Assembly (NCBI GenBank): GCA_016840405.1
Contig: JAEOSK010000004.1
Location: 49,174-113,173, forward strand
Source of the DNA: Candidatus Hermodarchaeum yapensis
GTDB lineage: Archaea; Asgardarchaeota; Hermodarchaeia; Hermodarchaeales; Hermodarchaeaceae
Reading direction: 5' to 3'
DNA: 64,000 nucleotides
The notes under the pieces are model-generated. The model saw only the letters and a list, made by a program, of their open reading frames with translations. It was not told where the DNA came from and did not search any database. A program made the position numbers and the translations under genes. Shown here piece by piece: positions 43,420 through 46,359 of the stretch. Each line of letters starts with the position of its first letter. The stretch's first letter is position 1.

Positions 43420-43770
43420 ATGGCATTTCCTTGTCAGACCGTTGCTAGAGAAGCGTTGCCTGCTATTAAAGCAGCGTTAGCGAGGGCTCTAGTAAAAGAG
43501 GGAATGACGCAGGTTGAGATTTCCAAACTTCTTGGAACTACAGAGGCGACGATTTCGCATTATATGAAAGGGGAACGGGGAACCGCTGTTGTTTTGGGTC
43601 AACATATCGTAGATGATATCGATCAAGTGGCACACAAAATCAAGGAAGGTAGTTTAACAGAAAAACAAACATCCCAAAAGTTGTGTCAAATCTGTCTAAA
43701 AGCCCGAAACACCTGCGCAGTGTGTGGAGCAGAGACAACCCAAGATTGTAATCATTGCACTCACACGTAA
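43420..43770 (+). CDS. Archaeal HTH regulator with Cys-rich C-terminus
   Basis: PCQ..LPAIKA, GMTQVEISKLLGTTEATISHY..GERG; CQIC, CAVC, CNHC. Confidence 0.85.
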   Translation: MAFPCQTVAREALPAIKAALARALVKEGMTQVEISKLLGTTEATISHYMKGERGTAVVLGQHIVDDIDQVAHKIKEGSLTEKQTSQKLCQICLKARNTCAVCGAETTQDCNHCTHT

Positions 43771-43854: not shown

Positions 43855-45063
43855 GTGGCATCCATCCCCAATGTCCTTCGTAAAGAAGGCGTCTTTAGCT
43901 TCGTTGTTCTTCTTTTCGTCTGTAGCATAATTTGGGCTATGTTTTTGTCCATTTCGTGGGGTGCACATTTCGCACCGCGTATCGCGTTAGACGATGATAC
44001 GATGCACAAGACGGTTATCTATTACATGTTGAATGGTGAAGATTTCTATACAGCTTGGCGACATGCAGCACAGGCTACTGGAGATTTAGGTGATTTACGT
44101 ATCTATCGGACGCCCCTCATCTTCTATCCAGTCGTATTTCTTACTGGTTGGGCAGGTGCAGGCTTTATTTTTCCGTTAAGTGTACTTTGTGTTTGTGTCG
44201 CTGCATTGAATCTCATCCTTACATTTTGGACTACTCGGACCATTACGGGATCGGGTTGGGCAGGCTTGGCGGCAACGGGTGTTCAATATACCTTCTTTTT
44301 CAACGTCATTCCCTTATTCCAAATCTCCCTCTTTGCAATGCCCTTCCTCATTCTAACCATCTATTGGGCGTGGACTGACCGACCATGGTTGGCAGGAGGG
44401 TTCCTGGCCATGGCATTTCTCATCAAAGAAACCTTTGCCTTTGCTCTCCCTGCGATTGTTATCTTCTTCCTGATGAAACGACAAGGACGACACGCCCTGA
44501 TCATCCTTGGGATTTTCATGGGAGCATTGAGTATCTATTTTCTGCATACAATAATTGCACAACCAGTTTCAGGGCTCGAATTATTATTTGGTGCAAGTCT
44601 TCCAGTTTTCATTTCAAACCTAGCAGGATTTCTCTGGTTTGGTTTTGGAGCCCTATACTACAATGTCTTGGCTCCGGCGACATTTGAGGGCTATTACCCC
44701 TCCAACCCAGTTCCTGTATTTATTCCCTTACCCGTCTTCTATTGCGTGTTGTGTCTTCAGATTATCTTGGTGTGGGGAACCTTCCTATGGTGGACCGTGA
44801 GATATATTCGGACCCGACAAACACCTCCCAAACCCCTTCTGGTAATGGCTCTAATAATGTGGATTGTACCCCTTGTATTTACAGCGACTACTACGGTCTG
44901 GGATTTTCCATTGTTCTGGATGGAGTATGCCATTTGGCGATGGTTTGCCGCCTCCTATGTGGGATTCCAGTTACTCGTTGCATTAAGCTGGACTAATCTA
45001 AAACCTGCGATAAAAAGGACCTTGGCAGGACTTGTATCATCTACTCCCATTTTTTCTTCGTAA
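43855..45063 (+). CDS. GT-C-like polytopic membrane protein (putative glycosyltransferase)
   Basis: DDD after the first TM, YRTP, IKE loop; about 10 TMs. Confidence 0.65.
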   Translation: MASIPNVLRKEGVFSFVVLLFVCSIIWAMFLSISWGAHFAPRIALDDDTMHKTVIYYMLNGEDFYTAWRHAAQATGDLGDLRIYRTPLIFYPVVFLTGWAGAGFIFPLSVLCVCVAALNLILTFWTTRTITGSGWAGLAATGVQYTFFFNVIPLFQISLFAMPFLILTIYWAWTDRPWLAGGFLAMAFLIKETFAFALPAIVIFFLMKRQGRHALIILGIFMGALSIYFLHTIIAQPVSGLELLFGASLPVFISNLAGFLWFGFGALYYNVLAPATFEGYYPSNPVPVFIPLPVFYCVLCLQIILVWGTFLWWTVRYIRTRQTPPKPLLVMALIMWIVPLVFTATTTVWDFPLFWMEYAIWRWFAASYVGFQLLVALSWTNLKPAIKRTLAGLVSSTPIFSS

Positions 45064-45110
45064 TCGGTTACTCAAAGAAATGCTGAGATGTGCCCTCAAT
45101 TACACAAGCA

Positions 45111-45120
45111 GTATAAAAAG
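45111..45120 (+). promoter_or_regulatory. TATA-like box upstream of the candidate ncRNA
   Basis: GTATAAAAAG about 25 nt before the first helix; no convincing downstream + strand CDS. Confidence 0.45.
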
Positions 45121-45140
45121 CAACATACGCCCCATACAAG

Positions 45141-45360
45141 GTTAGTTACCGGCAATCAGAATATTAGACCACCCTTGAGTTAATGCCTCTTGGTGGAGGG
45201 CGGTGTTGTTTATTCGGCACCTGCCCTCCGAACTGTCCGGTAACCGCAGCAGATGCTTGGGAAGCATCCGGGGAGTATTGATGACCCATCTAGACGGATG
45301 GCGAGAAGAAACAGGACCCCCATATTTGGGGAGCAGAGTGGGAGGGGGGATTCATTTTTT
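45141..45360 (+). ncRNA. Candidate multi-stem structured RNA (~210 nt), family unknown
   Basis: Six helices (see findings), GC-rich relative to flanks, between convergent genes, followed by a T6 tract. Confidence 0.6.
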
Positions 45361-46245
45361 CATCGGTGGTTTCCGGATTTGCCATATACGGACCAAACCA
45401 TCAGCTGATCCCACTGCCAGCCAACGCCTAGTTGGTGATACCGACACAGTATACACCCCTTTAACAGGTAGTTCATACTGCTTGTGAATCTCACCAGATC
45501 GAATGTCCCACATACGAACACCATAATCGATGGCCGCAGCGACCTTCTTGTTGTCTGAAGTAAAATCGAGGTCACTGGCCCGAGATTCCAAAGATATTGA
45601 AAGATGTTCTTCCCAATCTTTTGTCGACCGAATTTTCAGGGTTTGTTCATAGCCTATTGAGCCTAGCCACTCACCATCTGGGGAAAAAGTCACGGCGGAA
45701 ACTGCAGTTTCGTGTCCTGTTATTTGTCTGATGAACTCACCGGAGGGAAACTCCCAGAGAAAAATATCATCGCCTAATCCCCCAGCCACTAAGAATTTTC
45801 CATCAGGTGAGAATGAAATGGAAGCAATATTCCGTCTCAAATTCGTAAGTGTCAGCTGCTCTGTTCCAGATGTCACATCCCAAATCTTGACATGCCCATC
45901 ATATGAACCAGAAGCAACGTATTCACCAGTCGGCGAAAATGCCACAGTTGCGACAGTCTTCCTATGTCCACTGAGCGTGTGTTCAAGCGTTCCAGAGGGA
46001 TACTGCCAAATCTTTACAGTGGCATCTGTGGATCCCGTTGCCAAGAAGTCACCCTTAGCGGCTATTGCCACTGAATTCACACTGTTCGTATGTCCAAAAA
46101 GTGTGTTGAGTTGGTTCCAATCGTTTACAGACCAAATTTGGGTGAGATTATCCATTCCACATGTGATTAGTACACTATTATCTAGAGAGAAGAGGATATC
46201 AGACACATGGCGAGTATGAGCATCGATAACGATGGGCGGATCCAT
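45352..46245 (-). CDS. WD40-repeat protein (seven-bladed beta-propeller)
   Basis: Seven GH..V..VAFS..G..LA.GS.D..VKIW-type repeats; start placed at ATG 46245. Confidence 0.93.
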   Translation of the reverse strand: MDPPIVIDAHTRHVSDILFSLDNSVLITCGMDNLTQIWSVNDWNQLNTLFGHTNSVNSVAIAAKGDFLATGSTDATVKIWQYPSGTLEHTLSGHRKTVATVAFSPTGEYVASGSYDGHVKIWDVTSGTEQLTLTNLRRNIASISFSPDGKFLVAGGLGDDIFLWEFPSGEFIRQITGHETAVSAVTFSPDGEWLGSIGYEQTLKIRSTKDWEEHLSISLESRASDLDFTSDNKKVAAAIDYGVRMWDIRSGEIHKQYELPVKGVYTVSVSPTRRWLAVGSADGLVRIWQIRKPPMKK

Positions 46246-46359
46246 TTCGAACGACACCTTCTGAATTCTCTTTTTGGCTTGGAGAGAACGAAGATGTCTA
46301 TATTGTAGTGTTAGACAGGTAAAAAGCCTAGCTAGTTGCAAACAAAGAGAACCTTGAAT

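Follow-up and report, generated by a model that had tools for sequence, protein, structure and literature searches.

The window analysed here is a stretch of 64,000 nucleotides (nt) from Candidatus Hermodarchaeum yapensis, an Asgard archaeon of the class Hermodarchaeia (GenBank assembly GCA_016840405.1, contig JAEOSK010000004.1, positions 49,174 to 113,173 of the forward strand). Our subject is the 288-nt gap at 45064-45351 between two convergent open reading frames (ORFs), one at 43855-45063 on the + strand (402 amino acids, aa) and one at 45352-46341 on the - strand (329 aa). The former encodes a GT-C (GT87-like) polytopic membrane glycosyltransferase and the latter a seven-bladed WD40 protein. 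Between them lies a conserved, single-copy, structured element with covariation at the RNA level, a kink-turn (K-turn) motif and a conserved promoter-like box, and it is very likely that this element is a real non-coding RNA (ncRNA) gene, running on the + strand from 45141 or 45145 to about 45327, where the conserved part stops at CCCCCAUAUUU. A preliminary description of the region had placed an unannotated, stand-alone RNA gene on this strand between the convergent genes. Both the placement and the gene are borne out by syntenic single-copy orthologues, a TATA box at fixed spacing, covariation and the lack of any Rfam family that matches; its length estimate of ~210 nt has to be reduced, the conserved RNA comprising ~185 nt rather than 210-220 nt. 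The ncRNA gene is conserved, single-copy and unannotated, and in the genomes searched it is confined to the Hermodarchaeia.

Distribution, conservation and promoter of the RNA gene

Blastn and a covariance search both find the ncRNA in a single copy in the genome of the window, the covariance match covering 45145-45328 (136 bits, expect value E about 1e-32). Of 14 genomes of the same genus, 12 yield orthologues by BLAST. A covariance model (R1) made from ten of these orthologues gives exactly one strong match per genome in 13 of the 18 other genomes of the family, which as sampled is the whole class (11 of the 14 belonging to the genus of the window and 2 of the 4 belonging to the sister genus); the class-level covariance search covered the same 19 genomes. 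Of the genomes with no R1 match, two (G010 and G002) have assemblies that lack the neighbouring marker gene as well, and in three others (G008:C194, G016:C67 and G017:C6; loci L077, L076 and L075) the contigs end inside the GT-C gene or just before the ncRNA promoter, so that the ncRNA is present in 14 of 14 genomes in which the locus is assembled. A weak covariance match in G010 lies inside an aminoacyl-tRNA synthetase ORF and was set aside as a chance match. Among 132 other genomes sampled from the phylum, R1 returned no match under the stricter filters of Infernal. A pattern for the 3' core of the RNA, searched among 185,579 species genomes, matches only in Hermodarchaeota/Promethearchaeota assemblies, and metagenome contigs contribute three further copies (L089, L093 and the divergent L088), four of the eight metagenome matches to this pattern being chance matches within coding DNA. 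One genome of the sister genus also has a weak second covariance match (G015:C209:905-1103, L111:206-404, - strand; 22.9 bits) with GAGGGUG...CACCCUC, resembling hairpin P3 described below, and without any GAUGA; either chance or a partial copy in decay may account for it.

Mean pairwise identity within the genus is 78% for the RNA and 71% for the 60 nt upstream, which hold the promoter, as compared with 55% for non-coding flanks and 67% for the upstream coding sequence. The ncRNA and its promoter are islands of conservation from which the flanks decay to background, the region downstream of the ncRNA being ~55% identical between genomes. The lineage formed by the window and its nearest relative, G005, is the most divergent of the genus (the 136 bits of the window compare with about 200).

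The ncRNA matches no catalogued RNA family, in keeping with the novelty that the preliminary description had claimed. Rfam 15 gave no match across the whole window at gathering thresholds, a permissive local scan (E up to 10) returned only a chance microRNA match on the other strand (E 8.9), and four orthologous loci gave nothing in Rfam at E up to 1. ARAGORN predicted no tRNA or transfer-messenger RNA in the window, and no description of the ncRNA was found in the literature searched.

The GTATAAAAAG TATA box pointed out earlier at 45111-45120 is present and belongs to a conserved box: TATAAAAAG (45112-45120, + strand) is nearly invariant, resembles the signal recognition particle (SRP) RNA promoter of the same genome and probably serves as promoter here. 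From the start of this box to the GUUAC/GUUAU of the first helix, the two genera have a spacing of 30-31 nt; the window has 33 nt, owing to a 2-nt insertion that gives GUUAGUUAC. Since TATA boxes of archaeal promoters are centred about 26 nt upstream of the start site, transcription is predicted to begin at 45141-45145, and the ncRNA would be transcribed independently from its own promoter. Just upstream, the genus alignment contains a further conserved element, GATGTGCC...TTACACAAGCAG (45087-45111, + strand), a candidate B recognition element (BRE) or operator that holds the inverted repeat TGTG-N10/11-CACA (45089-45108). Related motifs occur 5' of the sister-genus copies and of the metagenome copy L088; the element is absent 5' of the RNase P and SRP RNA genes of the same genome, and is therefore not a shared "stable-RNA" motif.

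As the preliminary description had argued from G-U pairs, the + strand is favoured: many cells of the pair tables hold G.U, which would be A.C mismatches on the other strand, and the direction of the promoter agrees. Insertions and deletions of 1-2 nt among orthologues (AC-GCAG versus ACAGCAG; GGGAAGC versus GGGAAAGC) leave no conserved reading frame. Together with the loss of the entire P2 arm in L073 of the sister genus, they rule out a protein-coding small ORF.

Secondary structure and the kink-turn motif

Pairing was assessed on an alignment (A3) of 15 related sequences, which had been fitted to helices P1, P2, P3 and P4 and to a local K-stem, and not to the helices of a distal K-turn. On A3 the first model, consisting of the fitted helices, has 94.1% of cells paired and compensatory changes in 10 of 30 pairs, a result matched by none of 500 shuffles, and slid controls are 33-63% paired; it should be noted that these figures are generous, since the alignment was fitted to the same helices and the sequences are related. 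The distal K-turn model has 92.6% of cells paired and 12 of 38 pairs compensatory (0 of 500 shuffles as good; slid controls 37-59% paired). Compensatory changes fall in P1, P2, P3, P4 and the 3' kink-turn hairpin, so that both orthologues and covariation, judged by pair counts against shuffles, stand behind the RNA that had been proposed.

All features of the RNA are on the + strand. P1 closes a three-way junction by pairing GUUACCGG (45145-45152) with CCGGUAAC (45237-45244), the helix earlier given as GTTACCGG with CCGGTAAC, and varies at three compensatory pairs: CCGG/CCGG in the window, CUAA/UUAG in most of the genus and UUAG/UUAG (with U.G) in the sister genus. The P2 region (45165-45188) has AGGCA/UGCCU as its genus consensus, replaced by GGU/ACC in the sister genus (C-G to U-A), and is poorly formed in the window; the CCACC/GGTGG hairpin of the preliminary description (45169-45173/45192-45196) is present there, but it is common only to the window and G005 and is not conserved. 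The single-stranded J2/3 strand CCUCUUGG (45186-45193) is conserved, being exact in 13 of the 15 sequences from three lineages and off by one base in each of the other two. P3 (45196-45228; GAGGGC GGUGUUG / CGGCACC U GCCCUC) corresponds to the GGAGGGCGGTGTTG/CGGCACCTGCCCTCC hairpin previously placed at 45195-45229 and varies in a compensatory manner at two pairs: one turns from C-G into U-A and U.G in the sister genus, the other from G-C into A-U in two sequences. The inner stem of P3 is remodelled yet kept in the window and in L088. Between P3 and P1 most species have the strand CUCCUUUUCC, which is lost in the window/G005 lineage. The linker (C)GCAGCA(G) (45245-45251), whose GCAGCA is nearly invariant in all lineages, then leads to P4 (45252-45268), GAUGC(UU)/(AA)GCAUC with the conserved loop (C)UGGGAA, the GATGCTT/AAGCATC hairpin that had been recognized before. 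The closing pair of P4 changes from G-C to U-A in both sister-genus sequences and its second pair from A-U to U.G. A rival 3' pairing from RNAalifold (GGG..CAUC/GAUG..CCC) was rejected on this ground, as it is broken in the sister genus whereas P4 covaries. Hammerhead, sarcin-ricin loop, selenocysteine insertion sequence (SECIS) and U6-like readings were also discarded, the nucleotides that they require not being conserved across the alignment.

The minimum free energy structure of 45141-45328 reproduces P1, P3, P4 and the helices S1 (GGGG/CCCC) and P5 (CCAUC/GAUGG) of the 3' domain. On folding energy, the high degree of structure claimed at the outset is upheld in part: the 220-nt stretch is weak (z = -0.70 on the + strand and -1.88 on the - strand), and the conserved 184 nt (45145-45328) reach z = -2.5, with a mean of -1.5 over the 15 family members.

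The most conserved part of the 3' domain is the strand at 45278-45287, which reads as the bulged strand of a kink-turn: C-stem UU (the canonical stem), the 3-nt bulge GAU, GA, a C at position 3b and CC of the non-canonical stem (NC-stem). Its GAUGA (45280-45284) is invariant in 15 of 15 sequences, as are both GA dinucleotides. Two partners compete for it. In a local closure GAUGA would face GGGGA (45270-45274) to form a K-loop, the local stem being 91.1% paired. In a distal closure it would face the conserved strand GG-C-GA-GA (45300-45306; family consensus GG-Y-GA-GG in all lineages) to form a standard K-turn with C-stem CC/GG (UU/GA in the window), bulge GAU, tandem G.A/A.G, a variable 3b.3n position and NC-stem CC/GG continuing into P5. 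Below the distal C-stem come a small internal loop and then S1, GGAG/CUCC (GGGG/CCCC in the window and sister genus), which is 90.6% paired on A3 even though the alignment was not fitted to it. GGGGAG (45270-45275) would accordingly be either the 5' strand of S1, with CCCC at 45317-45320 as its partner, or the non-bulged strand of the local K-loop. The NC-stem and P5 together make up CCAUC, loop UAGACG and GAUGG (45286-45301), which is the CCATC/GATGG hairpin of the preliminary description and shows compensatory changes across the 15 sequences; P5 is a hairpin of differing sequence in most homologues and weak in three, and its outer UCC/GGA pairs are 84% paired.

Every part of a kink-turn or K-loop (stem, 3-nt bulge, tandem sheared G.A/A.G pairs and non-canonical stem) can be read here, and the K-motif is established at the level of sequence, with the local and distal closures mutually exclusive. 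At -2b/-2n, 13 sequences have C-G, whereas the window and L093, which are unrelated, have U-A; at 5b/5n, C-G gives way to U-A in three cases and to U.G in one. Position 3b.3n varies and in most sequences holds a non-Watson-Crick pair (C.C, U.U or C.U), as it likewise does in known K-turns. The anchor-based table and the A3 pair counts lead us to suggest that covariation slightly favours the distal closure. The L7Ae-type K-loop GGG-GA/GA-CCC of the preliminary description had therefore identified the bulged strand correctly, but paired it with what appears to be the slightly less favoured partner. A hairpin that rivals the distal form, P6 (GAUGG/CCAUC), has one compensatory change, in G012, and the RNA may have alternative conformations. 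The genome of the window encodes L7Ae, a protein that binds K-turns and K-loops in box C/D and H/ACA small RNAs (sRNAs), RNase P RNA, SRP RNA and further archaeal ncRNAs (PMC5539422, PMC6009581, PMC2377435). Judging from the motif, the ncRNA quite probably carries an L7Ae-bound K-motif.

The RNA ends in the segment 45307-45327, in which an insertion common only to the window and G005, AGAAACAGGA, precedes the S1 3' strand CCCC(C) and the tail AUAUUU; GGACCCCC of this 3' part can be aligned with the sister genus. What follows (45328-45360, including UGGGG and a run of six T residues, T6) is not conserved and lies outside the RNA, although it may act as a read-through terminator. Two features that had been assigned to the RNA thus fall away as parts of it: CCCCA/TGGGG (45318-45331) is present but specific to the window and G005, and T6 (45355-45360), also present, lies beyond the conserved RNA and overlaps the last codons of the WD40 ORF, those of its C-terminal Lys-Lys.

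Possible functions of the RNA

On balance it is likely that the ncRNA is the RNA core of an L7Ae-bound ribonucleoprotein (RNP). In such a particle, the 5' three-way junction of P1, P2 and P3 would present CCUCUUGG, joined in most species by CUCCUUUUCC, as conserved single strands rich in pyrimidines, followed by the GCAGCA linker, P4 with its UGGGAA loop, and a 3' hairpin interrupted by the kink-turn, whose NC-stem would run into P5. L7Ae would bind the kink-turn and nucleate the RNP, and the invariant junction strands, GCAGCA and the P4 loop would be held out to contact further proteins or an RNA partner. The closest parallels in kind are partner RNAs from L7Ae immunoprecipitation in Sulfolobus acidocaldarius (PMC5539422), which are likewise stable archaeal K-turn or K-loop ncRNAs with their own promoters and no evident guide function; they differ in that the present ncRNA has no sequence or structural relative among them and is limited to one Asgard class, and in that binding is here predicted from the motif.

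Several observations weigh against an RNP of this kind. No target or partner was found in rRNA, among sites in the window or at the starts of neighbouring genes. The existence of a transcript, its ends and how abundant it is all stand as predictions from the sequence, as does the binding of L7Ae from its motif. The 15 aligned sequences are related, so the covariation statistics overstate their independence, and folding energy is just modestly better than that of shuffles. The local K-loop combined with P6 is about as well supported as the distal form, leaving two possible folds for the 3' domain, and the canonical stem beside the bulge has just 2 base pairs (bp) before the internal loop. Furthermore, CUCCUUUUCC is not essential, as it is lost in the window/G005 lineage, and the large insertions described below, at or beside the K-motif in two relatives, indicate that the ncRNA either tolerates them or is dispensable there, which speaks against an essential role.

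No closer relatives of eukaryotes are known than the Asgard archaea, and the eukaryotic small nucleolar RNPs and U4 small nuclear RNP rest on K-turn RNPs of L7Ae/Snu13. If the L7Ae-bound RNP is real, a conserved, complex K-turn RNA outside the C/D and H/ACA guides would add a new type of RNP to the repertoire, and the ncRNA is in any case a concrete molecule to pull down from the uncultured Hermodarchaeia. A bolder proposal, which we regard as speculative and doubtful, is that it represents a third kind of K-turn RNP beside C/D and H/ACA, nucleated by L7Ae and with junction strands that recruit lineage-specific proteins or an RNA substrate, possibly as a GT-C-linked membrane RNP like that of OLE RNA. 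This analysis newly shows that no assembled locus lacks the ncRNA, that the promoter stands at a fixed spacing and that two closures compete for the K-motif, the distal one with covariation; it also yields two testable leads, namely the linkage to the GT-C gene and the repeated insertion of omegaRNA mini-transposons.

Among other explanations, it is unlikely, though worth keeping in view, that the ncRNA is a trans-acting antisense regulator in which CCUCUUGG, CUCCUUUUCC and CUCC mask Shine-Dalgarno-like sequences of mRNAs, the K-turn serving for stability only. Masking of ribosome-binding sites by base pairing has reportedly been described for sRNAs of Methanosarcina, and the two best-conserved single strands are rich in C and U and complementary to sequences of the AAGAGG/GGAG type; the strong promoter of its own and the intergenic position would also suit such a regulator. 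Nevertheless, CCAAGAGG is not enriched in the window (4 sites versus 2.3 expected), neighbouring gene starts have no complementarity, CUCCUUUUCC is missing from the very lineage of the window, and an RNA with five conserved elements is more elaborate than the usual base-pairing sRNA. A lineage-specific regulatory sRNA would be of ordinary interest.

It is very improbable that the ncRNA is an atypical, enlarged box C/D or H/ACA modification guide, even though L7Ae-type K-motifs are a hallmark of both guide classes (PMC6009581, PMC2377435) and GAUGA resembles box C/C' while GGGA and G-Y-GA resemble box D/D'. With box C/D sRNAs, in which box C is RUGAUGA and box D is CUGA, it shares the GAUGA bulged strand, the GA non-bulged strand, tandem G.A pairs, a possible K-loop form and a spacer of 3-5 nt as in D'/C' (PMC6009581). 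However, it is three to four times longer (about 185 nt versus about 50 nt), begins with GUUAC and ends in CCAUCAUUU with neither a 5' box C nor a 3' CUGA, and has no terminal C/D pair and no free guides of 10-12 nt; its sheared pairs use the second GA of GAUGA, and its NC-stem is Watson-Crick CC/GG rather than U.U plus G-C. The sole C-like element, AGAUGC, belongs to P4 as one of its strands, and the GA is gone from it in the sister genus (AUUUGC or AUAUGC); the would-be guide upstream of the GA strand is sequestered in P4. Its K-turn with an internal loop beneath, and its short 3' tail, recall the archaeal H/ACA hairpin (PMC2377435), but the loop, 2 nt by 1-3 nt and 2 bp from the K-turn, offers no pseudouridylation pocket, and the tail reads AUCA, ACAC or UUCA with no conserved ANA box. 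A guide or chaperone directed at rRNA was likewise rejected: duplexes of the single-stranded segments with the 16S and 23S rRNA regions were scanned, and 21 of 60 shuffles do as well as the junction strand CCUCUUGG, the segment compared with shuffles. Nor is the ncRNA RNase P RNA or SRP RNA, both of which match elsewhere in the genome above threshold: RNase P RNA at C17:9705-10091 and SRP RNA at C24:22360-22699.

The genes beside the ncRNA bear on two remaining explanations. The gene upstream of the ncRNA, on the same strand and about 80-235 nt away, always encodes one and the same 402-aa polytopic membrane protein (52-91% identity), both in the two genera and on contig L088. The ncRNA always lies between this GT-C gene and the convergent geranylgeranyl-reductase side. 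The WD40 gene is present in the window's genus; in the sister genus it is absent from the locus and the geranylgeranyl reductase gene stands directly after the ncRNA, so the WD40 gene is not tied to the ncRNA. The GT-C gene may be, but the pattern would follow just as well if the locus, which is lineage-specific, had a shared origin. The protein is found in 16 of the 18 family genomes and in 0 of 183 others in the phylum, the same narrow lineage as the ncRNA, and among 5.8 billion proteins it forms only 45 clusters, all at 50% identity or above. It has a weak GT87 match in Pfam, a nearly invariant DDD motif at residues 45-47 and a confident structure model (predicted local distance difference test, pLDDT, 80.7), whose best structural matches are all GT-C glycosyltransferases (ALG12, ArnT, AglB/STT3, PimE and AftA). 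Just upstream of the GT-C gene and syntenic within the genus is a gene at 43420-43770 (+ strand) for a small HTH_3 (Xre-like) protein with a cysteine-rich C-terminus containing several CxxC motifs, a possible regulator of the locus.

That the ncRNA and the GT-C gene form a two-gene module, either as a membrane RNP of the OLE/OapA kind or through control of the neighbour's expression, is suggested by their strict same-strand adjacency in three lineages although the downstream neighbour changed, and by their matching narrow distribution (RNA in 13 and protein in 16 of 18 family genomes, both 0 outside). OLE RNA of the Firmicutes with its proteins OapA and OapC is similarly a lineage-restricted, complex ncRNA with a K-turn, there functionally important, beside a gene for a polytopic membrane protein (PMC9723947), but at about 600 nt it differs from this ~185-nt RNA of another domain of life, which has no sequence similarity to it and a GT-C glycosyltransferase as neighbour, and the comparison is one of analogy only. 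We consider the module quite unlikely: the protein appears from its model to be an ordinary GT-C fold plus an acidic loop motif, with the active site facing outward and nothing to suggest RNA binding, co-distribution of lineage-specific neighbours may reflect shared origin alone, and the ncRNA has its own promoter. Least probable of all is a cis-acting or DNA element, whether a 3' untranslated region or terminator of the GT-C mRNA, a protein-binding DNA site or a relic of a mobile element or omegaRNA. Its location 80 nt past the stop codon of the same-strand GT-C gene could be taken to fit this, as could the abundance in these genomes of TnpB omegaRNA mini-elements, which have landed in the ncRNA gene itself, but a TATA box conserved at fixed spacing, compensatory base-pair changes that mark constraint on RNA, and flanks that decay to background identity are at odds with it. 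The loose likeness to HEARO/omegaRNAs seen in the preliminary description does not hold up. The ncRNA is of similar size to the TnpB/IscB omegaRNAs and, like them, highly structured, yet it is a single copy with its own promoter, has as neighbours a GT-C enzyme, a WD40 protein and a reductase and no nuclease gene (iscB and tnpB are indeed not adjacent, as had been stated), and has no significant blastn match to the rest of its genome (best E 4), which contains 11 copies of an omegaRNA core.

Elements inserted in the RNA gene

Two relatives of the window carry an insertion within the ncRNA gene. In G005, a ~190-nt element lies between P4 and the K-motif (L006:1311-1500, - strand), and in G009 a ~240-nt element lies in the loop between GGGGAG and ACCGAUGA (L013, about 1252-1492, - strand). 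Both contain the promoter-like (TATA-like) sequence TTTTTATAC and share a 140-nt core, and neither contains tnpB; the 3' part of the ncRNA is intact in sequence in both genomes. The insertion points are ~10 nt apart, which indicates two independent events. Further insertions of repeats would explain why the assemblies of G008, G016 and G017 break at this locus.

The core (GTCGCCGCC...GGGTAAGTTTCGG...CAACGG) is present in 11 copies in the window's genome (G000), and relatives have as many as 18. Five of the G000 copies directly abut the C-terminal zinc-ribbon domain of TnpB (G000 C17:12261-12403, C6:6791-6888, C10:13996-14091, C76:1507-1617 and C20:3895-4007), and on this basis the core is identified as a TnpB omegaRNA. 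Orphan copies with no TnpB (among others G000 C30:64028-64163, C18:5350-5494 and C54:10994-11168) occur between housekeeping genes, for example between those for ELP3 and Nop5 and between those for L22 and Trm112. At least 28 matches to the TnpB C-terminal domain exceed the Pfam cut-off in this genome. Of its rRNA genes, that for 23S rRNA is divided between the ends of two contigs (C17 and C60), and that for 16S rRNA (G000:C71:619-4212, - strand) spans ~3.6 kb as compared with a model of 1.48 kb and so must contain ~2 kb of insertions, which are probably introns.

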